From an uncultured Clostridia bacterium (lineage in GTDB: Bacteria > Bacillota > Dehalobacteriia > UBA4068): DNA of 64,000 nt. The DNA lies in the NCBI GenBank assembly GCA_944393575.1, contig CALYAP010000029.1:1987-65986 (forward strand), written 5' to 3'. The translations under genes were made by a program, and so were the position numbers. This document shows positions 3,321-35,171 of this stretch, piece by piece (position 1 is the stretch's first letter; every line of letters starts with the position of its first letter). Below the pieces are notes generated by a model that saw only the letters and a list, made by a program, of their open reading frames with translations, was not told the DNA's origin and ran no database searches.

Positions 3321-4856
3321 CTATTTATCATCATGGCGCAGTTGATATTTACGCGCTACTGTGACCTTCTCCTCATAGCAGGCAAAGGACTGCTCGATCT
3401 GTTCCTTAGGCAGCGGCTTGGTCAGCAATGAGACTACGGGGACGATTATCAGGCTCACCAGCATGGTGATGGCGCCGGCATTGATTGCAGAATCGATAAA
3501 ACCGATGAACATATTGGCCACGGTGATACCTACGCCAGTAGCAAAGCTGGCCCAGACTGCCGCACGTGTGGTGCGCTTCCAATAGAGGCCATAGAGGAAA
3601 GGCGCCAGGAAAGCACCGGAAAGTGCGCCCCAGCTGATGCCCATCAGCTGAGCGATGAAAGTCGGCGGATCGATAGCCAAAATCACCGAGATCAGCAGGA
3701 AGACCGCTACCAATACCCGCAGCCAGATCATCTGTTTCTTCTCAGAAAGATCCTTGACCACTGTGCCTTTGATGAAGTCCAGCGTCAAGGTGCTGGCGCT
3801 GGTCAGTACTAACGAAGCCAGGGTGGACATCGAGGCAGAAAGCACCAGCATGATCACTACGCCGATCACGACATCGGGCAGAGTAGAAAGCATCGTCGGA
3901 ATGATGCTATCATAGACGATATTACCGGCTGCATCATAGATAGCAGGAGAATCATAGAGACGGGAGAAACCACCAAGGAAGTAAGAACCGCCGGCCACGA
4001 TCAGGGCGAAGAAGGTGGAGATGATGGTACCGGTATAAACAGCCTTCTCGCTCTTGATGGCATAAAATTTATGTACCATCTGCGGCAGTCCCCAGGTACC
4101 CAGCGAAGTCAGCAGCACTACACCCAGCAGGTTGAGCGGATCCGGCCCGAAAAAGCTGGTATACGCTCCCGGCTGCCCGGCAGTCACTGCCTCCACGCTC
4201 TCGATCTGCGCCAGCTGGCCGATAGCATCGATAAAACCGCCATTATTGGCGAGCACTGCAGCTATCACCAGCACGATACCGAAGAGCATCACGATGCCCT
4301 GGATCAGGTCATTGACCGCTGTGGCCATATAGCCGCCCAGCACCACATAGATGCAGGTCAGCACCGCCATACCGATCACGCAATAAATATACGGGATACC
4401 AAAAGCCATCTCAAAGAGGCGGGAAAGCCCATTATAGACCGAAGCGGTATACGGCACCAGAAAGACGAAAACAATAGCTGAGGCCACGACCTTCAGCGCC
4501 TGGGAATTATAGCGGCTGCCAAAGAATTCTGGCATGGTACGCGAGCCCAGATGATTACTCATCACCCGAGTGCGGCGTCCTAGGATCACCCAGGCCAAGA
4601 GGCTGCCGATCAGGGCGTTGCCTAGGCCGATCCAAGTAGAAGCCAGTCCGTATTTGAAGCCGAACTGCCCGGCATAGCCCACAAAAATAACCGCGGAAAA
4701 ATAGGTGGTTCCGTAAGCAAAAGCCGTCATCCACGGCCCGATACTCCGCCCGCCCAGCACAAAGCTGTTGACGGAATCAGCCTTCTTGCGGCTGACGATA
4801 CCCACTATTATCAACACGGTGAAAAAAACTACTAGTAAAGCGATTTTGATAAACAT
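3321..4856 (-). CDS. Sodium:solute symporter (SSS family)
   Basis: 511 aa, ~13 TM segments; F-x-LGGRSIGPW, GLPQMVHKFY, LSASMSTLAS, GLYWKRTT motifs. Confidence 0.92.
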   Translation of the reverse strand: MFIKIALLVVFFTVLIIVGIVSRKKADSVNSFVLGGRSIGPWMTAFAYGTTYFSAVIFVGYAGQFGFKYGLASTWIGLGNALIGSLLAWVILGRRTRVMSNHLGSRTMPEFFGSRYNSQALKVVASAIVFVFLVPYTASVYNGLSRLFEMAFGIPYIYCVIGMAVLTCIYVVLGGYMATAVNDLIQGIVMLFGIVLVIAAVLANNGGFIDAIGQLAQIESVEAVTAGQPGAYTSFFGPDPLNLLGVVLLTSLGTWGLPQMVHKFYAIKSEKAVYTGTIISTFFALIVAGGSYFLGGFSRLYDSPAIYDAAGNIVYDSIIPTMLSTLPDVVIGVVIMLVLSASMSTLASLVLTSASTLTLDFIKGTVVKDLSEKKQMIWLRVLVAVFLLISVILAIDPPTFIAQLMGISWGALSGAFLAPFLYGLYWKRTTRAAVWASFATGVGITVANMFIGFIDSAINAGAITMLVSLIIVPVVSLLTKPLPKEQIEQSFACYEEKVTVARKYQLRHDDK

Positions 4857-5064
4857 TTTCCTATACCTTCCATTCTACCATTTTACCTGCAGGCAAACAC
4901 AAGTTTGCTGCTAATTACCTGATGAATTTTATCAGATAGAAGGGTTTCTGTCAATAAAAGCTAATATATTTTAGTAGTGTTGTAAGTTTAGCCAATTTTT
5001 AGACAATTTTACCGGATCAAGATTTAGACCAAAAAAAATGATCCAAGATAGGGGAGGCAAAGTA

Positions 5065-5406
5065 ATGGCAAAAACACTCTCTTTTAAAACGCGACTCACC
5101 ATGCGTGCAGACGGGCGGAACGATCCCCATCATGGCTTTGGCAAGGGAATCGAAATGCTTCTCTTGGGCGTGGACAAATATGGCTCGCTGAACAGAGCTG
5201 CCAAAGAAATGGGTATGGCCTACTCCAAGGCCTGGAATGTCCTACGCCTCAATGAAAGCGAATTCGGCATCAAATTTATCAACCGCAATGGTGCCCATGG
5301 CTCTGAGCTAACGCCGGAGGGACGCGCTTTTCTGGAGCACTATCAGGAAATGGAGTTAGCAGCAGAGCGCGCCGCCCAGGAAGTTTTCGATAAGTATTTC
5401 CGCTAA
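5065..5406 (+). CDS. ModE-like winged-HTH regulator (DNA-binding domain only)
   Basis: FGKGIEMLL...GSLNRAAKEMGMAYSKAW...GSELTPEG; RBS GGAGG upstream of ATG 5065. Confidence 0.82.
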   Translation: MAKTLSFKTRLTMRADGRNDPHHGFGKGIEMLLLGVDKYGSLNRAAKEMGMAYSKAWNVLRLNESEFGIKFINRNGAHGSELTPEGRAFLEHYQEMELAAERAAQEVFDKYFR

Positions 5407-5597
5407 AGCAAGAATTCGCCAGCCAGGCTAACAAACTAGCAGCATCAGCCCCGTGAAAAACGGCTTGCCGTTACCCCTAATTTTAGTCTACTCTTAGTTA
5501 TCCTCTACAAAGAATAATTCAATCATCAACCAAGAATCATTAAGGAGCAACGCTTTTTAATCAAGAGACAAGAAGCATAACCAAACAAGCAATAATC

Positions 5598-5636
5598 GCA
5601 AAAACCGCCTTCCTCATCAGAAGAAGGCGGTTTTGC
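5598..5636. terminator. Bidirectional terminator between the ModE-like gene and rubrerythrin
   Basis: AAAACCGCCTTC...GAAGGCGGTTTT inverted repeat. Confidence 0.75.
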
Positions 5637-5678
5637 CAGCTTTAAGCTGTATGGGAATAAAGGAAGTTTGATTTCGGT

Positions 5679-6218
5679 TTACCAGCAATCATCCGGTTTG
5701 ACTTCAAAGAAAGCCTGAGGATGAGCGCAGACCGGGCAAACAGCCGGAGCGCTGGTGCCAATGTGGAGATGGCCGCAGTTACGGCAGCGCCATACCACTA
5801 CGTCCTCGCAGACAAAGACAGCGCCTTTTTCCAACATATCAACAAAAGCGCGATATCTTTCTTCATGGTGCTTTTCGATATCAGCGACCTTTTCAAAGAG
5901 GTAAGCGATCTTGTCAAAGCCCTCTTCTTTAGCGGTCTTGGCAAACTCAGCATACATCTCGGTCCATTCATAATTTTCCCCAGCTGCAGCAGCTTTGAGG
6001 TTATCTACAGTGGTGCCGATACCGTCGTTGATCAGCTTGAACCAAATTTTAGCATGTTCTTTTTCGTTATGGGCGGTTTCGCTGAAGATGGCAGAGATCA
6101 GCTCATAGCCTTCTTTTTTCGCAGCAGAAGCAAAATAATCATACTTATTTCTGGCCATGGACTCGCCAGCAAAAGCGGTGTTCAGGTTAGCTTCAGTCTT
6201 ACTTCCCTTGAGTTCCAT
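5679..6218 (-). CDS. rbr: Rubrerythrin
   Basis: [22 protein letters not shown]; EKEH, EKHH di-iron motifs; C-terminal WRCRNCG...CPVCAHP rubredoxin domain; start moved to ATG 6218 after RBS GGAGG. Confidence 0.95.
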
Positions 6219-21991: not shown

Positions 21992-22217
21992 TGGTCTACG
22001 CCTTTGCTTGACCGGCTATACGGGCTTGCGTCCGTTGTCATCGAGCCAGGTCGAAGCCTCTTAAAACTGCTGGTAATCGTCGGCGGTTGCTTCTTTAATG
22101 ATAAGCCTTGCCCGCCGCTACCGGGGAAATCGTCCTGCCTGGCGCAAAGTCTGCCGCGACAGGAACTCCGCTAGTAATTTGCCTGCTTAGGAAATGGGCC
22201 GCTGTCCCAAGACAGCG

Positions 22218-22658
22218 TTATGCTTGCTGGTCGGATGTGCCGCCATGGGCTTGAGCCTGCACAGTGCTGCTGTTACGGGCCTGCTTTTTGGCGCAGCCTT
22301 GTGGCTTGCTGTTATGGCCCGGCACCGCAGGAGAGCTGCGCAGCATCTTGGCCATCTGCCGGCTGATCCGCTCAAAACTCTGCTCCAGCGCGGCGCCGCG
22401 GATGACGAAAATATAATCGCATCCCGGCGGGAACAGCTCCAGCAAAGAGGCGGCAACATGGCGGAAGACCCGCTTGATGCGGTTACGCTCTACCGCATGG
22501 CCGAGCTTTTTGGAAGCAGAAAAGCCGATGCGCACCTCGGTGCTACCCCTGCGCGGAAGGCAATACAGGATAAAAGCTGAGCAGGCGTCATGCCTTCCCC
22601 GCGCATAGATGCGGCTAAAATCGCGCCGCTTTTTGAGACGGTAATTATCCGGCAGCAT
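22218..22658 (-). CDS. rnpA: Ribonuclease P protein component
   Basis: RLKKRRDF, RIGFSASKKLGHAVERNRIKR (RNR motif). Confidence 0.95.
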   Translation of the reverse strand: MLPDNYRLKKRRDFSRIYARGRHDACSAFILYCLPRRGSTEVRIGFSASKKLGHAVERNRIKRVFRHVAASLLELFPPGCDYIFVIRGAALEQSFERISRQMAKMLRSSPAVPGHNSKPQGCAKKQARNSSTVQAQAHGGTSDQQA

Positions 22659-22669
22659 GTCTTTACGCC

Positions 22670-22807
22670 TTAGGCGGAAAGAACTTTTCTACCGCGGGCG
22701 CGGCGACGGGCCAGGACTTTACGTCCGCCTTTGGTGCTCATTCTGGCCATAAAGCCATGAACTCTCTTATGCACTCTTCTCTTGGGTTGATAGGTTCTTT
22801 TTACCAT
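22670..22807 (-). CDS. rpmH: 50S ribosomal protein L34
   Basis: Manual translation [45 protein letters not shown] (45 aa, below the ORF-track cutoff); RBS AGGAGG. Confidence 0.98.
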
Positions 22808-22898
22808 GATTGATTCTCCTCCTAATTTTCAGGGAAAGCCCTTCAGCGGCCTGACCGCTGATACGGACATAATTCCCGTAGTTTACACTAATAGATGA

Positions 22899-23055
22899 AT
22901 TATATCCCAAGTGGCGGTACTTGTCAATCGCAATCTCCGCCTTGTCTGTGGATAACCCGCCTTTTTTGCCTGTTTTGTCTTCTCATGGGCGAAAAAAATT
23001 CTTGAAAATGTGGATAACTTTTGCTATTATAATTATTGCATTTAAGTTATCCACA
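22899..23055. promoter_or_regulatory. rpmH/dnaA divergent promoters with DnaA boxes (incAB-like half of oriC)
   Basis: rpmH: TTGACA (22927-22922)-17-TATAAT on -; dnaA: TTGAAA (23002)-17-TATTAT (23025); perfect boxes TGTGGATAA 22947 and 23009, TTATCCACA 23047. Confidence 0.88.
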
Positions 23056-23198
23056 GGAGAAAACAGTGTCATGCTGTCTTTTGCCGGCAGCTTCCCGCAC
23101 CTGATGCGGTGTTCCGGCCCCTCCTGCTTGGGGCAAAATATCAGCTGGGGCCGATGTGCCAAAAGCGCGCGGCCTCCCATTCAGAGGGGGTTCATCAG

Positions 23199-24530
23199 GT
23201 GGAAGCATTTTGGCAGGACGCTTTGGCAAAAATCAAAAACGAGGTTCGGGAAACCAGCTATGAGCAATGGTTCTCTCCTGCGACAGTGATTAGGGTCGAG
23301 AAGCAGAATGATACCGTTTATATCTGCGTAGTCGATAAATTCGCTAAAAACGCTATCGAGACCCTGTATATGCCAATGCTGACCGAAGTGCTGAGCGAAA
23401 CCCTGGGCGAGGCTGTTTTCCCTGAAATCATTGATCTTTCTAATGAAAGCGTGCCGGAAAACCGGCCTAGCCCTGCTGCTAAAAAAAGCGACTATGCCGG
23501 CGCGCCCTATTTCAACCCCCGTTATACCTTTGATTCTTTCGTGGTCGGCAGCTCCAACCGTTTTTCCCATGCCGCGGCGATGGCAGTGGCCGAAAGCCCC
23601 AGCCGTACCTATAACCCCTTGTTCATCTATGGCGGCAGCGGCCTGGGCAAGACCCATCTGATGCATGCCATCGGCCAGGCGGTGCTGAAAAACTCGCCGG
23701 GCAAAAAGGTGGTCTATGTCAGCTCCGAGGCCTTTACCAACGAATTCATCACCATGCTGCGGGAAAACCGGCTCGACGCCTTCAAGACACGCTACCGCAA
23801 TACCGATATTCTGCTGATCGACGATATTCAGTTCCTTACCGAGAAAGACCGCATCCAGGAAGAATTTTTCCATACCTTCAATGCGCTCCATGATGCCGGC
23901 AAGCAGATCGTCATCAGCTCCGACCGTCCGCCCAAGGAGATCAATCCTCTGGAGGAGCGGCTGCGTTCCCGCTTTGAGTGGGGGCTGATCACCGATATCC
24001 AGCCGCCGGACTGGGAGACCCGCTGCGCCATTTTGCAGCGGAAAGCGCTTTCCGAACATATCAAGGTTGATAATGAAGTCATCTCCTTGATCGCCGATAA
24101 TATCAAGACCAATATCCGCGAGCTGGAGGGCGCGCTCAACAAAGTCATCTATAGCTGCATCATTCACAAGCGCAGCTATGCAGATATGGAATTCGCTAAA
24201 GAAGCGCTCAAGGAGATCTTGGTTCCTGATGCTCCGCCTAAGCTGACCATCAATAATGTGCAGAAGCTGGTGGCTGATTATTATCAGATCAGCATCGAGG
24301 ATATGAAGGGCAAAAAGAAAGACCGCTACATCGCCTTTCCCCGCCAGATCGCCATGTTCCTCTGCCGGGAGCTGGTGGGCGCAACCACGCCGCAGATCGG
24401 CCGTGATTTTGGCGGCCGCGACCACACTACAGTGATGTACGCCTGCGAGAAAATCGGCACCGCGCGAAAGACCGATCCGCAGCTGGACCGCTCTTTGAAC
24501 GATATCGAAAAGATGCTGCTTCATAAATAA
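23199..24530 (+). CDS. dnaA: Chromosomal replication initiator DnaA
   Basis: YNPLFIYGGSGLGKTHL, LLIDDIQF, RLRSRFEWG, GGRDHTTV; GTG start at 23199 after RBS GAGGGG. Confidence 0.98.
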   Translation: MEAFWQDALAKIKNEVRETSYEQWFSPATVIRVEKQNDTVYICVVDKFAKNAIETLYMPMLTEVLSETLGEAVFPEIIDLSNESVPENRPSPAAKKSDYAGAPYFNPRYTFDSFVVGSSNRFSHAAAMAVAESPSRTYNPLFIYGGSGLGKTHLMHAIGQAVLKNSPGKKVVYVSSEAFTNEFITMLRENRLDAFKTRYRNTDILLIDDIQFLTEKDRIQEEFFHTFNALHDAGKQIVISSDRPPKEINPLEERLRSRFEWGLITDIQPPDWETRCAILQRKALSEHIKVDNEVISLIADNIKTNIRELEGALNKVIYSCIIHKRSYADMEFAKEALKEILVPDAPPKLTINNVQKLVADYYQISIEDMKGKKKDRYIAFPRQIAMFLCRELVGATTPQIGRDFGGRDHTTVMYACEKIGTARKTDPQLDRSLNDIEKMLLHK

Positions 24531-24578
24531 GCTACATTATATATATTCTACATTATATACATGATAAATATGCTGCAT

Positions 24579-24716
24579 TTATCCCCACCTTATCAACAGG
24601 TGGGGATTTTTATACCTCCAGATATTGCTCTTATACCTGTCAAAAACTACTATATATCCACAAAATAAGCGATAAAAAGACTTTTTTCGTCATTATTGAC
24701 AGGCAGTAATCCACAT
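24579..24716 (+). promoter_or_regulatory. dnaA terminator hairpin plus imperfect DnaA boxes
   Basis: ATCCCCACCT-TATCAAC-AGGTGGGGAT-TTTT; boxes TTATCCCCA, TTATCAACA, ATATCCACA, TAATCCACA. Confidence 0.65.
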
Positions 24717-24804
24717 TTTTTCCCCATCTTTAGCCGCGATACCAGCAATCGCTGCCGTTAGCAGCGGTTTTTGCTTGGGGGAAAGGGAGCAGCGGGAGCA
24801 AAAG

Positions 24805-25236
24805 CTATAAGAAAAATTTCTCGATCTGGGATTCGCCGATGACGGTGATCCCTTTTTCTTTGAGCGCTGCGGCCAGCACGCCGTCGCCCGCCACCAGCGT
24901 GGCGGAGAAATTGCCATCATAAACCTGTCCGCTGCCGCAGGAGGGGCTGCGTTCTTTGAGAATGGCGTAGCGGCACTGGTACAGCTCGGCCAGATGGAGC
25001 ACCTCAGCAGCTCCGCGCGCAAAGGCGGCGGTGATATCCCTGCCGCTGCGGTCATAGACTCTCCCCTGGCACAGCTCAGCGGGCTGCCGCGGAGTAGGCA
25101 GGCCGCCCATGATCTCCGGACAGACCGGGATCAGCTGATAATGCTGCTGCAGCTGCGCCAAATGCGGACAAACAGAGGCTTGTCCATCATAGCGGCAATG
25201 TACTCCCAGCAGACAAGCGCTGATCAGAATATTCAC
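24805..25236 (-). CDS. DUF523 / thiouracil desulfidase-like Fe-S protein
   Basis: ISACLLG..CRYDG, VCPE..GGLPTPR, LKERSPSCG. Confidence 0.9.
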   Translation of the reverse strand: MNILISACLLGVHCRYDGQASVCPHLAQLQQHYQLIPVCPEIMGGLPTPRQPAELCQGRVYDRSGRDITAAFARGAAEVLHLAELYQCRYAILKERSPSCGSGQVYDGNFSATLVAGDGVLAAALKEKGITVIGESQIEKFFL

Positions 25237-25388
25237 CGGCTCTCCCTCCCTATTAACAGACTGCTGCTATCTATAAGCCGTTTTATCTTAAATTAGCTAT
25301 TAATAGAACCTTTTTACTAATACCTCTTTATTTTAAACAGCGGTTTTATTTGTGTTCTCTTCTTTTCCCTCTTCTATTAATCACTTAA

Positions 25389-26495
25389 TCACTGCAAATG
25401 CGCCACGCCGTCGATGGCTTGGACCAGCCATTTAGTGCCCTGGTTGATCGCGGACGGCAGGGTGGCGGCGCTGATAAAGGTCTGCGTTTTGGCCGGCAGC
25501 TCCAAAATGCGGCGGCCGCGCTGATCGTCAAGCTCAGAGAGAGCATCATCAAGCAGCAGCACCGGGTACTCGCCCTTTTCCGCATAAGCCAGCTCCAGCT
25601 CAGAAAGCTTCAGCGAAAGCGCCAGGGTGCGCTGCTGTCCCTGGGAAGCGAAATCGCGCGCCGCATCACCATTGATCAGGATATTGATATCGTCCCGATG
25701 CGGGCCGACCAGAGTAGCGCCGCGCAGCCGCTCAGCGTGGCTGTGCCGCTGCAGCTCGCGCCGGTACAGCTCCGCCAGCTCCGCAGCTGAGGAAAAGCTT
25801 TCGCGGCCAGCAATATTGCACTGATAGCGCAGCTCCAGACCCTCGCCTGTGGCCAGATCATCATGGAGCGGCGCAGCTATCTGATTGAGAGCAGCGATGA
25901 TCTGCTGACGGCGCAGGCTGATCTGGCTGCCATATTCCACCAGCTGATCATTCCAAACCGCCAAAGTATCCTCATCGGGCATTCTCTCCCAGGCCTTGAG
26001 GCAGGCATTGCGTTGGCGCAGGATATGATTATAATTGACCAGCGTATGACAATAAGCCGGATCGATCTGGGAGATCTGGCGGTTGAGCCAGCGGCGGCGG
26101 CAACCGGGACCGCCTTTGACCAGGTAAATATCCTCCGGCGAAAAAATGACCGTATGAAAAATACCCACGATATCCACCAGACGGCGGCGCGGTTGGCCAT
26201 TGACTACCCATTTGCGCTTTTTATCGCGGTTCATCGCCGCTGAAATAGTCAGCCTGCCCTGAGTGGCAGAATAGGCCTCTGCTTCCAGATAAAAATGCTG
26301 TTTATTTTTATTGATTAAATCCAAATCATCTGTCGTGCGGAAAGAAGAAGCCATTCCCAGATAGGAAATGGCTTCGAGCAGATTAGTCTTTCCCTGGGCA
26401 TTGGCGCCATAGATGATATTGACGCTTTCGTCAAAAAGCGCTTCCTGATGAAGATAATTACGCCAATTTTCCAGTTTCAACCTTTTGATTATCAT
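25389..26495 (-). CDS. recF: DNA replication and repair protein RecF
   Basis: GANAQGKTNLLEAI, GPHRDD, SQGQQR, LLLDD..SELD. Confidence 0.97.
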   Translation of the reverse strand: MIIKRLKLENWRNYLHQEALFDESVNIIYGANAQGKTNLLEAISYLGMASSFRTTDDLDLINKNKQHFYLEAEAYSATQGRLTISAAMNRDKKRKWVVNGQPRRRLVDIVGIFHTVIFSPEDIYLVKGGPGCRRRWLNRQISQIDPAYCHTLVNYNHILRQRNACLKAWERMPDEDTLAVWNDQLVEYGSQISLRRQQIIAALNQIAAPLHDDLATGEGLELRYQCNIAGRESFSSAAELAELYRRELQRHSHAERLRGATLVGPHRDDINILINGDAARDFASQGQQRTLALSLKLSELELAYAEKGEYPVLLLDDALSELDDQRGRRILELPAKTQTFISAATLPSAINQGTKWLVQAIDGVAHLQ

Positions 26496-26496
26496 C

Positions 26497-27642
26497 TTAT
26501 TTGCTTACTCTGACTGGCAAGACCAGGTAGAGATATTTATTTTCCTTTTCTGCAGCAGCTTCTTCATCATCGGCGGCAGCGGCGATGATGCCAGGGGTAG
26601 TAGGGCCGGTAAGGCTGAAGGTGACCTGATCGTCATCCATCACCCGAAGCGCATCCAGCAGATAGCGGGCATTATAGTTAAGGGTCATCGGTTCGCCGCT
26701 GATGACAGCCTCCTGATTTTCATCAAAGGTACCATCATCAGGCGAGGAAGAATAGATATTGACGCTATGCTCATCTAAACGCAGACGGACGATATTGCCC
26801 TTGCCACGGGCGATCTCCCGGCTGATCACTGAGGCCAGCTCTAAAGACTCGATCATCCGCAGACGGGAAATAGTCAAAAAGCTGCGGAAAAGCTCCTGAT
26901 CAGGCAATACTTGATGATAATCCGGGAACTGGCCGACGATCAGGCGCGAGGTTACTGAAAGATTGGCGAAGCTGAAAAAGATCTGGCTCTTGCTGACCGT
27001 GATGATGATATTATCATCGTCATTGTTAGCCAAGCGGGCGATCTCCTGCATCACCTTATTGGGGACGATGACCGTAGCCTTGCCCTGTCCCTGCCAGGTA
27101 TCATTGCTGACTGCCAGGCGGTGGGTATCGGTAGCTACCATAGTGATATTATCGCCATCTAGTTCCAGCATAATACCGGTGAAGACCGGTCGCAGCTCAT
27201 CGGCTGAGGCGGCAATGCCGGTCTGGCGCACCATGCGCTTAAAGACGCGTACCGGGATCGTGCCCTGGATATCGCCCTCACGCGGCGGCAGCAGAGGAAA
27301 TTCTTCAGTAGTATAGCAGGGCATAGATATCTGGCCGCGGTCATATTTGATCAGCAGCTGCTCCTGGCCGACAGATTCCAGAGTCAACGGGCCGGATCCT
27401 AAACCTTTGGCCAGCGCGGAAAGCTTACGCCCCGGAGCGACCAGCTCGCCCTCTTCCTCAATGGCGGCATTGATCACACATTCAATAGCTATTTCCAGGT
27501 CGGTAGCGCGGAAGCTGAGCTGATTGCCATGAGCAGAGATCATGATGCCGCTTAATACCGGCAGGGTGTTTTTGGTACTGACAGCTCTTTCCACAGCATT
27601 GACCGCATAGAGAAGATCTTCCCGTAAAAGCTCGATTTTCAT
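26497..27642 (-). CDS. dnaN: DNA polymerase III beta sliding clamp
   Basis: LPVLSGI, ATDLE, RPVFTG, VATDTHRL, GQFPDY, YLVLPVR. Confidence 0.97.
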   Translation of the reverse strand: MKIELLREDLLYAVNAVERAVSTKNTLPVLSGIMISAHGNQLSFRATDLEIAIECVINAAIEEEGELVAPGRKLSALAKGLGSGPLTLESVGQEQLLIKYDRGQISMPCYTTEEFPLLPPREGDIQGTIPVRVFKRMVRQTGIAASADELRPVFTGIMLELDGDNITMVATDTHRLAVSNDTWQGQGKATVIVPNKVMQEIARLANNDDDNIIITVSKSQIFFSFANLSVTSRLIVGQFPDYHQVLPDQELFRSFLTISRLRMIESLELASVISREIARGKGNIVRLRLDEHSVNIYSSSPDDGTFDENQEAVISGEPMTLNYNARYLLDALRVMDDDQVTFSLTGPTTPGIIAAAADDEEAAAEKENKYLYLVLPVRVSK

Positions 27643-27769
27643 AGATAATCTTTCCTTTCGCTAAAATTTACGCTTATTGTCAACTTATACTTCTTCATCA
27701 TAAAAAAGATGATTGTTGGTCTCTACAGCGATGATAATGTTCAATGGAAGTAAAGCATAAGTTAATTAG

Positions 27770-28160
27770 GAGTATTAGTATATATAAAATAGTATTAGTA
27801 ATAGGGGGTGTGGATTAAGGGGATAAAGATCGCTTAGCAAAAGTTTTAGTGGTTGTTTGCCAAAAAAATGCTTGTGGAAGAGATAAACAGAGATATCCAC
27901 AAATTAACAGTGCTTAACAAAAGGGCAAAAGTTATTAACTTTCTGCCATTTTTTGTATCCAGTTTATCAACAAGCCTTTCCACCGAAAAAGAGGCTTTTT
28001 CCAACGCTATTCCCCAACTTTTCCCCAAAAAAAGAGGGGTGCCCTGTGTATTTCTTTGATAATACCAGTATAAACGATTTTCTCCTAAAAGAAAAGAGGC
28101 AGCGGGAAAAAAGTAGCTGCCAACCCCTGGCTATTTCTCTTTAACTTATGTGTGGATAAG
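27770..28160 (-). other. oriC DNA-unwinding region (DnaA boxes, GC motif, DnaA-trios, AT cluster)
   Basis: Minus strand 27826->27770: TTATCCCCT-TAATCCACA-CCCCC-TATTACTAATACTAT-TTTATATATA, the Bacillus-type basal unwinding layout; more boxes near 27893, 27964 and 28152. Confidence 0.85.
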
Positions 28161-28449
28161 CTTTTTTAGTACTGTTTATTAAAGGGAAAGAAAAGCATCT
28201 TTGGTCTGAAAAAGACGAAGCAGTAGTTTATCGATGCCACTGATGTTAAAATAAAGGCACAGAATTATTAAAAGTTTATTAAGATTATTTATCAATACAG
28301 GAAAAAGATTAAATCTATAGAAAAAAGAATAAAGGATAAACTTGGCTCTTTGTTGATAACGCTTGATAATCTATCACTTTAGTTACTATCAGCTGCGGCT
28401 GAGTTAACAAGATTTATCCTGCTAGTTAAATAAAATAAAGGAGAAAACA

Positions 28450-29163
28450 ATGCTCAAGATCAGCCATTTTTCAAAATCATATGATAGCCGCCATAAGGCT
28501 GTCGATGATCTCTCCTTAGAGGTTTGCTCTGGAGATATTTTTGCTTTTATCGGTCATAATGGCGCCGGTAAAACCACTACTCTCAAAGCGGTAGTAGGGA
28601 TTCTCCCCTTTGAAGAGGGAACGATCAAAATCGATGATCTGGATATCAATGAATATCCGCTAGAGGTTAAAAAACGCCTCGCCTATATTCCTGATGAACC
28701 AAAACTCTATGATATGCAGACCGGCGCGCAGTATCTCAATTTTATCGCCGATATTTTTGACGTCAATGCTGTTGACCGGCGGGAGCGGATCGAAAAATAT
28801 GCTGAGCTGCTGGAAATCAGAAAAGCACTCAATGATCCGATCAATTCTTATTCTCATGGTATGAAGCAAAAATTGCAGATCATCTCCGCTTTTATCCATA
28901 ATCCTAAGCTGATGGTGATGGATGAGCCTTTTGTTGGTTTGGACCCCAAAGCTGCTTTTAGCTTCAAGCAGTTGATGCGCGAATTCTGCGAAAATGGTGG
29001 GGCGATTTTCTTCTCCACCCATGTCTTGGAAGTAGCGGAAAAACTCTGCGATAAAGTAGCGGTGATCAAAGGCGGCAAACTGATCGCCAGCGGCACCATG
29101 GATGAGGTCAAGGGCGATAGCTCGCTGGAAGAAGTCTTTTTGGAGTTAACAGAACATGAATAA
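28450..29163 (+). CDS. ABC transporter ATP-binding protein
   Basis: GHNGAGKTT, YSHGMKQK, DEPFVGLDP, STH. Confidence 0.93.
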   Translation: MLKISHFSKSYDSRHKAVDDLSLEVCSGDIFAFIGHNGAGKTTTLKAVVGILPFEEGTIKIDDLDINEYPLEVKKRLAYIPDEPKLYDMQTGAQYLNFIADIFDVNAVDRRERIEKYAELLEIRKALNDPINSYSHGMKQKLQIISAFIHNPKLMVMDEPFVGLDPKAAFSFKQLMREFCENGGAIFFSTHVLEVAEKLCDKVAVIKGGKLIASGTMDEVKGDSSLEEVFLELTEHE

Positions 29164-30718
29164 ACTAGGCATATTGATCAAAAATTATCTGCTCCTGGCA
29201 TGGGGCGAAATCAAATATAAGAAAAAGAAAGGCGGCCGCACCATCGGCTCACTGGCCTTAATCGTTGTGCTTGGCGCTTTTCTCATTTTTGTCATGGGCA
29301 GTTCAGCTGCTGGGCAAATCTATTCATACCAGCCTTTCGGTATGGCCCATATTGCCTTGGCTTATAGTTTGATGTTGGCTTTAGTGGTCAGCTTGTTGAT
29401 GGCGATTATGCGCGGTTCTATGGGTAGCAATACCGCTGATGCTGAGCTTTTGTTATCACTGCCGGTAACACGCCAAACAGTGATCGTGGCCAAGAGCTGT
29501 TCCAAATATCTTTTTGAGCTGTGGCCCATGGTGGTCTTTTTCCTGCCGGCCCTAGTCGTCTATACTGTTATCATGGATAGCGGCATCGGCCTCTTGCTAC
29601 GCGGCATTCTCTTGGTATTGATGATCCCGCTGCTTTCGGTCGGCCTTTCCTATATTCTTAACTGGCTGTTTTTCAAGGCCGGCAGCAAGATCAAAAATCC
29701 GCAGAATGTAACTACAGCGCTGACCATGATCTTTTTAGTGCTGTACCTGGTCTTTGTTTTCACTATCAATAGCGGTGCTGCTACTATGGCGGATATTTCC
29801 GAGCTGGAAGAGCAGTATTATTCCTTTGCGCCGATCGCCTGGGGAACGGAGTTTATGCTCACTGGCTCCATCGTGCAGCTGCTGCTCTTTGCCTGTGTCA
29901 CGGTACTGCCTTTTATTATCGGCGTTTGGCTCTATGCTAGTATCTTCGGCCGCTCTCACCGTACCTGGCATTCGACCAAAACTACTATTGATTACCGGAG
30001 CAGAACCCCTTATCAGGCTCTGCTGAAAAAGGAGATCAGCCGTTATTTCGGCTCCTCGGCCTATTTTATCAATACCGGCTTTGGCATGGTGATGCTGTTG
30101 ATCTTGACCGTCGTCATCATTATCGGCAAAAACAGTTTTCTGGCAGAGATCTTGCCTTTCTTAGGCAATCTGGTGCCGGTTATCATTATTCTTTTTGCTT
30201 GTTTCTGCATCGCTACCTGCTATGTCAGCGCCTGCTCCATTTCTCTGGAGGGGAAAAATTTGTGGATTCTCAAGGTAGCGCCGGTTAGAACTCGCGATAT
30301 CTTCCTGGCCAAGCTTACCACTCACCTGGTGGTGACCCTGCCGGTGACCCTCATCTGCTCAATAGTATTGGTGCTGGTATTGGGTCTGCCTGCTGGCCAG
30401 GCCTGTCCTGTGATCCTGCTGCCCAGCGCCTATTGCCTGCTGACTGGGGTGATGGGTCTGGTGATCAATCTCAAAAACCCCAAGATGGATTGGGATGGTG
30501 AAGACAAGGTAGTCAAACAAAGCACGGCGGCTGTTTTGGGTATGCTCTGCGGCATGTTGCCGGCAGCAATCGTCTTTATCCCCTATTTTGTTTTTCTCCA
30601 GGGAATAGTTAGCTGGACCGCGATTTATCTGATCGCTCTAGCGCTCTTCATCTGCGCAGCGCTGATCATGTGGCTATGGCTCCGTGACCGTGGGGAAGAA
30701 ATTTTTGAGGCGCTGTAA
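29156..30718 (+). CDS. ABC-2 type exporter permease
   Basis: Multi-TM 520 aa; LLLSLPV and ISLEGKNLWILK motifs; overlaps the ATPase stop. Confidence 0.85.
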   Translation: MNKLGILIKNYLLLAWGEIKYKKKKGGRTIGSLALIVVLGAFLIFVMGSSAAGQIYSYQPFGMAHIALAYSLMLALVVSLLMAIMRGSMGSNTADAELLLSLPVTRQTVIVAKSCSKYLFELWPMVVFFLPALVVYTVIMDSGIGLLLRGILLVLMIPLLSVGLSYILNWLFFKAGSKIKNPQNVTTALTMIFLVLYLVFVFTINSGAATMADISELEEQYYSFAPIAWGTEFMLTGSIVQLLLFACVTVLPFIIGVWLYASIFGRSHRTWHSTKTTIDYRSRTPYQALLKKEISRYFGSSAYFINTGFGMVMLLILTVVIIIGKNSFLAEILPFLGNLVPVIIILFACFCIATCYVSACSISLEGKNLWILKVAPVRTRDIFLAKLTTHLVVTLPVTLICSIVLVLVLGLPAGQACPVILLPSAYCLLTGVMGLVINLKNPKMDWDGEDKVVKQSTAAVLGMLCGMLPAAIVFIPYFVFLQGIVSWTAIYLIALALFICAALIMWLWLRDRGEEIFEAL

Positions 30719-34576: not shown

Positions 34577-34873
34577 CTAGCCCAGCGCTATCCATAGCGC
34601 CAGTGCTAGCTGTAAGCAGAAGATCAGCGGTACCCCGAGGGTGAATTTGCGGCGGCGCGTCTTGTGATGGCATATCCAGATGGCAGCCCAGGCGCCGAGC
34701 GAGCCTCCCAGCACTGCCAGCAGCAGCAAGGTGCTCTCGGGAATGCGCCAGGCGTGGCGGCGGGCACGCTGTTTATCCACAGCAAAAATGATCAGCGTCA
34801 GCAGATTGATCAGCAGCAGATAGATGGCGAAAGCTGTGATATGTTGGCTGAAAAAAAGCTTGATACTGCTCAC
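34577..34873 (-). CDS. DUF1294 membrane protein
   Basis: DKQRARRHAWRIPESTL...GGSLGA...HHKT..KF. Confidence 0.9.
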   Translation of the reverse strand: MSSIKLFFSQHITAFAIYLLLINLLTLIIFAVDKQRARRHAWRIPESTLLLLAVLGGSLGAWAAIWICHHKTRRRKFTLGVPLIFCLQLALALWIALG

Positions 34874-35079: not shown

Positions 35080-35171
35080 TGTCGAATAATGCCACCTCAA
35101 AAGCATTATCCACAGAGTTATCCACATTATCCACAGGGTAGTATCCACAACAAATTTTCATTAGTGGATAA
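35080..35171. promoter_or_regulatory. DnaA-box cluster with an adjacent Spo0A box
   Basis: TTATCCACA at 35106, 35118, 35127; GTATCCACA 35141; AGTGGATAA 35163; TGTCGAA at 35080. Confidence 0.85.

Follow-up and report, generated by a model that had tools for sequence, protein, structure and literature searches.

A likely origin-spanning inversion that parts the dnaN-linked unwinding module from dnaA in an uncultured Clostridia bacterium

Where does a bacterial chromosome start to replicate when the gene of its initiator no longer lies beside the site of unwinding? This question is raised by a 64,000-nucleotide stretch of DNA (hereafter the window) from an uncultured gut Clostridia bacterium, in which dnaA and dnaN converge and dnaN has a putative unwinding module on its upstream side. 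The window comes from one contig (C29) of a 78-contig, 1.67-Mb draft genome with 96.9% completeness, labeled G000 herein. Gene identities were assigned by Pfam scans, and the genes scanned for domains span 11.6-38.8 kb. The features on which the argument depends are as follows.

22670..22807, minus strand: rpmH (ribosomal protein L34; PF00468, E 6e-22), the end of a leftward block from rpmH to parB
23199..24530, plus strand: dnaA (Pfam DnaA_N, Bac_DnaA and Bac_DnaA_C)
24805..25236, minus strand: gene of the DUF523 / 2-thiouracil desulfurase family (PF04463, E 7e-46), the last gene of the segment read here as inverted
25389..26495, minus strand: recF (Pfam SMC_N and others)
26497..27642, minus strand: dnaN (beta clamp; three Pfam beta-clamp domains)
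27756..27826, minus strand: unwinding module of the basal unwinding system (BUS) type by sequence, with boxes at 27826-27809, a GC spacer at 27808-27804, trios at 27803-27789 and AT-rich DNA at 27788-27756
28450..30718, plus strand: ABC transporter ATPase and permease genes (Pfam), the first rightward genes beyond the origin

The plus-strand dnaA is convergent with DUF523-recF-dnaN on the minus strand, and DUF523 and recF lie between dnaA and dnaN. The rnpA-rpmH-dnaA-dnaN context is described as conserved in Firmicutes (PMC7561715). Two features of the canonical Firmicutes cluster are retained here: rnpA-rpmH is divergent from dnaA, and recF comes directly after dnaN, its start codon lying one nucleotide past the dnaN stop by coordinates. 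The remainder differs, as dnaA is not followed by dnaN on one strand with the second origin part (oriC2) between them, dnaN-recF is inverted, yaaA is not found between dnaN and recF, and gyrB-gyrA do not come after recF. The dnaA start is backed by the relatives, whose alignments begin at residues 1-3 of the called start, and dnaN is a single locus and the only copy in the genome. An earlier note, made from the sequence alone, had described dnaA on the plus strand with its own terminator hairpin, converging on DUF523-recF-dnaN on the minus strand; the Pfam assignments, the hairpin fold and an independent contig (L142, described below) all agree with this description.

The sequence of the module was compared with the known unwinding elements. 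Its distal box is TTATCCCCT (27826-27818, minus strand; two mismatches), and its proximal box, TAATCCACA (27817-27809, minus strand; one mismatch), abuts TTATCCCCT without a gap. The GC spacer CCCCC (27808-27804, minus strand) places the first trio 5 nt after the boxes, and five trios with a central A (TAT, TAC, TAA, TAC and TAT) occupy 27803-27789 on the minus strand. The 30-mer at 27774-27803 is 90% A+T and is the second most AT-rich in 22.6-28.6 kb; 30-mers reaching 87% A+T make up just 0.18% of those in the window. With both strands counted, the 1.67-Mb genome has only three boxes that lead, after 2-7 nt, into a run of four or more TAN trios. There is one box-plus-trio module in the origin region, and the dnaN-linked one is the sole match near dnaA in G000. 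The BUS search criteria, as outlined in PMC8287927, are a box, often doubled in tandem with no more than 3 bp between the copies, lying at most 16 bp from the first trio, together with at least three consecutive central-adenine trios and a short GC-rich gap. A tandem box pair, a trio run, a GC-rich spacer and AT-rich DNA past the trios were all found here, and the module is therefore of the BUS kind as judged by its sequence. The tandem boxes, CCCCC, trios and AT cluster that the earlier note had placed upstream of dnaN in minus orientation are present at 27826->27756, and the distance of about 3.2 kb that it gave from the end of dnaA was measured as 3.24 kb from the dnaA stop to the start of the module.

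A separate observation concerns the 152-nt, AT-rich spacer between DUF523 and recF (25237-25388), which holds a trio-like TACTAATAC. This stretch pairs imperfectly with the unwinding module (23 nt, 78% complementary), and the pairing is probably a product of chance.

Is the arrangement real? A draft of 78 contigs may contain a chimera or a misjoin, in which case the true order could be canonical, and the earlier note had left misassembly standing. Metagenome contigs were scanned with a 30-nt stretch from the left junction as the query, and one contig, L142 (5827 bp), was returned. It is colinear with window 22565-28391 from end to end, with 24 mismatches and 0 gaps, and carries in one piece the end of rnpA, rpmH, dnaA, the junction, DUF523, recF, dnaN and 750 nt of spacer. 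The 24 mismatches indicate a different assembly and a slightly different strain. Logan contigs of four runs from four studies also tile 22800-28600 at 95-100% identity, with equal depth on both sides of the junctions. An artefact would find some support in the fact that no single contig listed for these four runs holds at least 31 nt of both dnaA and DUF523 coding DNA, with breaks at 24511-24787. However, the break points vary within this interval among the runs, and each is spanned in another run. No loose ends fall at the junctions; the sole loose ends are inside dnaA (23540-23944), a stretch conserved among organisms. Two records (X4 record 28 and X1 record 8) are single contigs from dnaN into and past the ABC gene. 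The junction DNA is unique in the genome, and G019, from another genus, has the identical convergent order. These data indicate that misassembly is very unlikely and leave a misjoined canonical order with almost no weight, so that the worry of the earlier note is largely answered.

If the order is real, the next question is whether the module belongs with dnaA or with dnaN. Gene order was established from match coordinates and contigs in the family of the organism (31 species genomes). The dnaN loci of the relatives were found with an alignment of eight DnaN sequences, as a single DnaN query returned no relative. The congener G001 carries dnaA, a terminator, a homologous oriC2 and dnaN on one strand. 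In an alignment of four species of the genus, about 440 nt upstream of dnaN are conserved block by block, comprising a promoter-like block, boxes and the module, and in G001 these 440 nt are the ordinary dnaA-dnaN spacer. A strict module pattern (a box with up to two mismatches and four or more TAN trios, separated by no more than 16 nt) was found upstream of dnaN in 14 of the 26 family genomes with a dnaN locus. The module was seen by eye in 10 more (G003, G008, G019, G022, G042, G006, G010, G044, G045 and, weakly, G020). It is thus present upstream of dnaN in 24 of the 25 family genomes that could be judged, whatever their gene order. On six contigs carrying a separated dnaA the strict pattern had zero matches, and on the seventh (G024) its sole match lies inside the dnaA coding sequence. 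The claim of the earlier note that dnaN-recF is inverted against dnaA and carries the unwinding element is supported by the canonical G001 with its homologous oriC2, by the linkage of the module to dnaN in 24 of 25 genomes and by L142.

Two details of this survey are recorded here. A looser pattern with at least five central-A trios matched in 17 of the 26 genomes, and this count was not used because several of the matches are A-runs and not the module. G041 was not judged, as there are only 146 nt of DNA upstream of its dnaN. The first ~50 nt of that contig (C157, L126), at the end upstream of dnaN, resemble sequencing-adapter sequence, and the 146 nt are for this reason not trustworthy.

How often have dnaA and dnaN been uncoupled? 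Among the 31 family genomes, 13 are canonical, 12 are uncoupled in at least five different layouts, and 6 could not be placed.

Canonical, dnaA-dnaN on one strand: G001, G006, G009, G010, G011, G012, G013, G014, G016, G020, G022, G043, G046
Uncoupled, convergent dnaA and recF-dnaN: G000, G019
Uncoupled, parA-parB-module-dnaN-recF: G007, G024, G015
Uncoupled, rnpA-rpmH directly facing dnaN, with dnaA elsewhere: G044
Uncoupled, dnaN 18 kb upstream of dnaA: G008
Uncoupled, dnaA and dnaN on different contigs, the flanks of each excluding the other: G003, G004, G017
Uncoupled, dnaA converging on an ABC permease gene: G002
Uncoupled, no dnaA within 6 kb upstream of dnaN: G042
Not placed, genes not found or at contig ends: G005, G018, G021, G023, G041, G045

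Four sister families in the same order were also compared, and each of their 16 genomes has the canonical layout. The near-universal order assumed by the earlier note is no longer general within the family of G000, as dnaA and dnaN are uncoupled in 12 of the 25 family genomes that could be placed. The changes were counted on a DnaN tree with 31 rows, 25 from family genomes and 6 from outgroups. The canonical and uncoupled labels need 5 changes on this tree, 4 of which are forced by well-supported branches. The parA-parB-module-dnaN-recF order (G007 C7/C49, G024 C27/C48, G015 C20) occurs in two separate clades. The tree does not include G001, as two contigs each hold a part of its dnaN, nor G002, G005, G018, G021 and G023, which had no dnaN match. 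As G001 is canonical in an otherwise uncoupled genus, its inclusion would add a change.

The layout of G044 was observed in its own right. Its contig C144 (L029) carries at 4560-6003 rpmH and the usual dnaA-promoter box pair, then oriC2 and dnaN. Several hundred nt without a dnaA match lie between the box pair and oriC2, and dnaA is inside another contig. It looks as if dnaA had been removed from between the two origin halves.

The most probable explanation, which we hold with good but not full confidence, is a real and fixed origin-spanning inversion in G000. The cassette consisting of oriC2 with the module, dnaN, recF and DUF523 would have been flipped against dnaA, with replication still starting at the dnaN-linked module. 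The inverted segment is about 3.6-3.9 kb. In the simplest path, the start would be a G001-like order of dnaA, oriC2, dnaN, recF, DUF523 and the ABC genes. A single inversion would then have had its two breakpoints past DUF523 and in the DNA that separates oriC2 from the dnaA terminator region. After the flip, dnaN-recF-DUF523 would lie to the left of the origin on the minus strand and be read in the direction of their fork; the genes stay co-oriented because the origin is inside the inverted piece. As in the canonical layout, dnaA would be short and transcribed head-on to replication, now 3.2 kb further away. Origin-spanning inversions are described as tolerated where the flipped genes keep their co-orientation (PMC5850607). 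The inversion in G000 resembles the origin-terminus-symmetric inversions of that source in having one end on each side of the origin and in keeping co-orientation. It differs in being only about 3.6-3.9 kb and strongly asymmetric, with one end ~0.3-0.8 kb from the unwinding site, and in parting the unwinding module from the gene of the initiator.

The sequence of G002 hints that the genus has undergone a further origin-spanning inversion, for in G002 an ABC permease orthologue (57% identity) converges on dnaA. Between these two genes of G002 lies a hairpin (L010 5512-5550) homologous to the dnaA terminator of G000, with 30 of 34 nt identical and the loop in opposite orientation. This hairpin is flanked by an A run and a T run and so is bidirectional. 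The exact path of rearrangement between G000 and G002 could not be reconstructed from the shared hairpin, since the G002 contig ends in the ABC permease gene and dnaN was not found.

The same segment might be a programmed switch, a reversible inversion that flips the dnaN cassette within the population. The layout does change repeatedly on the family tree, and oppositely oriented boxes flank the segment, with TTATCAACA at 24590 and its exact complement at 28351. However, the junctions have no inverted repeats longer than these 9-nt DnaA boxes, just as the earlier note had reported none, and no recombinase domain was found among the genes scanned in 11.6-38.8 kb. The four runs and the L142 contig show one orientation only, with no alternative joints. 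The repeats, the recombinase and the coexisting orientations of a site-specific invertible segment were thus all absent from this material, and a switch is highly improbable.

The absence of yaaA and gyrBA from the cluster, which the earlier note had included in the rearrangement, is correct as an observation. The gyrB and gyrA genes are together and intact on contig C56, and yaaA (S4_2, PF13275) has zero matches in the 96.9% complete genome. Among the dnaN loci compared, gyrB-gyrA follow recF only in the more distant relatives L053, L060, L061, L062 and L064; in closer relatives they are not within 5 kb after recF. This indicates that the missing gyrBA and yaaA are an older, lineage-wide state and not part of the inversion. 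The recF orthologues come directly after dnaN in the relatives, and the DUF523 gene has no match in the stretches of relatives' DNA that were compared.

Does replication start at the inverted module, or at the boxes beside dnaA? If up to one mismatch is allowed, the window holds 41 DnaA boxes and its shuffles 9.98 +/- 3.05, and 12 of the 41 fall in the three groups listed by the earlier note. The box regions are as follows.

22947..23055, no strand assigned: box group 1 (oriC1 / autoregulation region), three perfect boxes (22947, 23009, 23047) overlapping a dnaA promoter-like site
24579..24715, plus strand: box group 2, four one-mismatch boxes (24579, 24590, 24654, 24707) sharing one orientation
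27893..27972, no strand assigned: two further oriC2 DnaA boxes, kept in the genus alignment
28151..28359, no strand assigned: distal part of the dnaN-upstream spacer, with a perfect box at 28151 and a box at 28351

The dnaN-side boxes are at 27809, 27893, 27964, 28151 (the perfect one) and 28351. The promoter-like site within group 1 is TTGAAA-17-TATTAT with a TG at 23002-23030. The distal spacer could not be aligned among four congeners, and it contains the most AT-rich 30-mer of the region (28263-28292). A counterpart of group 2 downstream of dnaA is absent in the four congeners examined (G001-G004), where the DNA differs, and by this sequence comparison group 2 is species-specific. Sequence inspection of group 2 found no box-to-trio arrangement in the right orientation.

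These groups allow another account, in which the inversion is real and the origin is split: groups 1 and 2 and the dnaN-linked region cooperate by looping, or the DNA unwinds elsewhere. All three groups are box-enriched, as 41 boxes stand against ~10 expected and 12 of them are concentrated in three short spacers. Bipartite origins that loop out dnaA are known. The C. difficile origin is described as bipartite, with oriC1 upstream of dnaA and oriC2 between dnaA and dnaN, and both halves were needed in vitro (PMC7561715). However, group 2 has neither the counterpart in congeners nor the box-to-trio arrangement, there is one box-plus-trio module only in the region, and in at least 8 relatives dnaA and its upstream boxes are many kb off or on another contig with the module kept. 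In G000 boxes flank dnaA, but group 2 has no trio module. As the half with the unwinding site is not beside dnaA, the origin is not bipartite in the B. subtilis or C. difficile sense.

The GC skew was examined as a further indicator of the start site. On this contig the cumulative GC skew reaches its lowest point at window 25990 and then runs flat to ~27.5 kb, with a skew of -0.061 to the left and +0.032 to the right of the minimum; none of 2000 block shuffles was as deep. This fits an origin at 26-28 kb. The minimum falls between group 2 and the module, 1.35 kb from the former and 1.8 kb from the latter, which gives the split origin some support; the minimum and flat stretch together lie 0.3-1.8 kb from the module, too coarse a measure to pick a box group. 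The earlier note had expected the minimum at ~27.8 kb; the switch at 26.0-27.5 kb agrees with this, although its resolution is too low for proof. The dnaA and dnaN genes of G003 are on different contigs, and its skew V lies 44 nt upstream of dnaN, whereas at dnaA the skew falls straight through with no V.

Several points weigh against a start at the dnaN-linked module and partly favor the split origin. The skew in G000 cannot tell the three box groups apart, and gene orientation is a confounder of skew. A distance of at least 5 kb separates the skew minimum from the dnaN-linked module in G007 and G024, where third-position coding-strand skews suggest an origin beyond parA; G015 shows no skew V at the module. 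Either the layouts of the G007, G024 and G015 type arose recently, or replication does not fire from the module in these genomes. Melting of the C. difficile origin in vitro needed oriC1 and oriC2 (PMC7561715), so groups 1 and 2 may matter here. Of the 24 module calls, 10 were made by eye, and in G017 no module lies within 450 nt of dnaN. The family genomes are metagenome-assembled wherever the source type was seen. With these points counted, a split origin is unlikely but deserves consideration, and the inversion with a start at the module is preferred. The sequence evidence makes the dnaN-linked module (27756-27826) the most likely site of unwinding.

Third-position coding-strand GC skews of single genes were also noted. 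That of dnaA is negative in 12 of 15 family genomes (-0.07 to -0.21), as expected of a gene long read towards the origin. G007 and G024 show the opposite pattern to most relatives, with negative values for mnmG, mnmE and jag (down to -0.40) and a positive one for dnaA.

How are dnaA and dnaN expressed when they are apart? Two elements are relevant.

24581..24614, plus strand: intrinsic terminator hairpin of dnaA, with the DnaA-box-like loop TTATCAACA and a T run
28043..28102, minus strand: genus-conserved promoter-like block (TATACT / TGgTATTAT, then a box-like site) pointing to dnaN

The terminator has a 10-bp stem and a T run at 24581-24607 and a fold of -17.2 kcal/mol (z -3.9), and 0 of 200 shuffles were as good. 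The promoter-like block is ~400-460 nt upstream of dnaN and is near-invariant in the alignment of four species (A1), canonical G001 included. Its sequence, CTCTTTTCTTTT ... AAATCGTTTATACTGGTATTAT followed by the box-like site, lies at the far end of oriC2 (also in L008, L004 and L006) and resembles an extended -10 promoter, with a poor -35 in G000. The block had no Rfam match in a scan of 22000-29000. We infer that it may be a DnaA-controlled promoter reading through the boxes and the module into dnaN. The gene orientation means that dnaN cannot be read from the dnaA promoter. Under the inversion, dnaA would end at its own terminator and dnaN would be read from one or more promoters inside oriC2, the two being expressed separately. 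The uncoupling of beta-clamp expression from dnaA proposed by the earlier note agrees with the opposite strands and the dnaA terminator, with the promoter itself predicted from sequence.

The separation probably predates the inversion and would have freed the cassette to move. In the canonical G001 the homologous block is preceded by a strong terminator-like hairpin, 41 nt after dnaA, and because G001 has both, the genus of G000 probably transcribed dnaA and dnaN as separate units even before the flip. G013, from another genus, has no such terminator after dnaA, so this separation may not hold family-wide.

The most likely start of replication is still the module at 27756-27826 upstream of dnaN. 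From the two abutting boxes, bound DnaA would spread along the trios and open the AT-rich DNA next to them. The B. subtilis incC / BUS region, as presented in PMC8287927, is alike in having tandem boxes, a GC-rich spacer, trios and an AT-rich stretch, then dnaN. The G000 module differs in lying outside any dnaA-dnaN interval, in being oriented away from dnaA, and in having boxes that abut without a gap. The C. difficile origin is alike in its box cluster upstream of dnaA and its trio-bearing cluster upstream of dnaN, and the trio run given for its oriC2, 5'-CACCTACTACTATTACTACTATGA-3', is very similar to that of G000 (PMC7561715). In G000, however, 4.8 kb separate the two halves, of which oriC2 is inverted, and in relatives the halves are on different contigs.

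The surroundings of the origin are as follows. The leftward minus-strand block comprises parB, parA, rsmG, mnmG, mnmE, jag, yidC, yidD, rnpA and rpmH by Pfam. To the right, an arginine deiminase gene follows the ABC permease gene on the plus strand. The spacer between dnaN and the ABC ATPase gene is 807 nt and has no credible open reading frame, the longest being 68 aa with a TTG start and low complexity. The Rfam scan of 22000-29000 gave two matches, both under the gathering score and treated as chance: AsdA inside dnaA (28.4 against 52 bits) and VqmR (24.4 against 76 bits).

The strongest box cluster of the window lies outside the groups above, at 35106-35171, with three perfect tandem boxes and two one-mismatch boxes in 66 nt and without trios; a lone perfect box is nearby at 34773. 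The cluster is 7.3 kb to the right of the unwinding module, in the gap that follows a DUF6449 gene and precedes the start of a DUF1294 gene. From its sequence, it could be a DnaA-titrating site or a DnaA-regulated promoter. The three box groups of the earlier note are located exactly where it had placed them, but the middle group is species-specific and this fourth, stronger cluster had been missed.

The wider meaning of these results lies in the family. In B. subtilis, dnaA and dnaN are co-transcribed, and the dnaA-oriC-dnaN arrangement is the default origin marker in Bacillota. An origin outside the dnaA cluster is already known in other phyla. Many bacteria, E. coli among them, are reported to have oriC in another gene context (PMC4285127), so leaving the dnaA cluster is not new in kind. 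A limited literature search found no published description of the origin layout of this lineage. The origin-spanning inversion itself is an ordinary event; what is useful is how faithfully the module stays with dnaN and how many times the family has uncoupled the two genes independently. A bolder proposal, possible but doubtful on present evidence, is that the oriC2 module with its own DnaA-box-controlled promoter, dnaN and recF forms an autonomous origin cassette in the family, which has been inverted or moved against dnaA at least five times. If so, the box cluster upstream of dnaA would not be needed beside the unwinding site, and the linkage of initiator gene to origin would be dispensable in the family of G000. 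The closeness of the breaks to the boxes is also a hint, within this proposal, that initiation or DnaA-bound DNA may promote recombination there.

Origin predictors use dnaA as an indicator gene (PMC10225481). The module follows dnaN and not dnaA, and the two genes are unlinked in about half of the species that could be placed, so dnaA-based predictions would misplace the origin there. With its convergent genes, dnaN after parB, dnaA gone from the rpmH-dnaN interval and genes on separate contigs, the family offers natural variants for the question of whether the box cluster upstream of dnaA must sit near the unwinding site.

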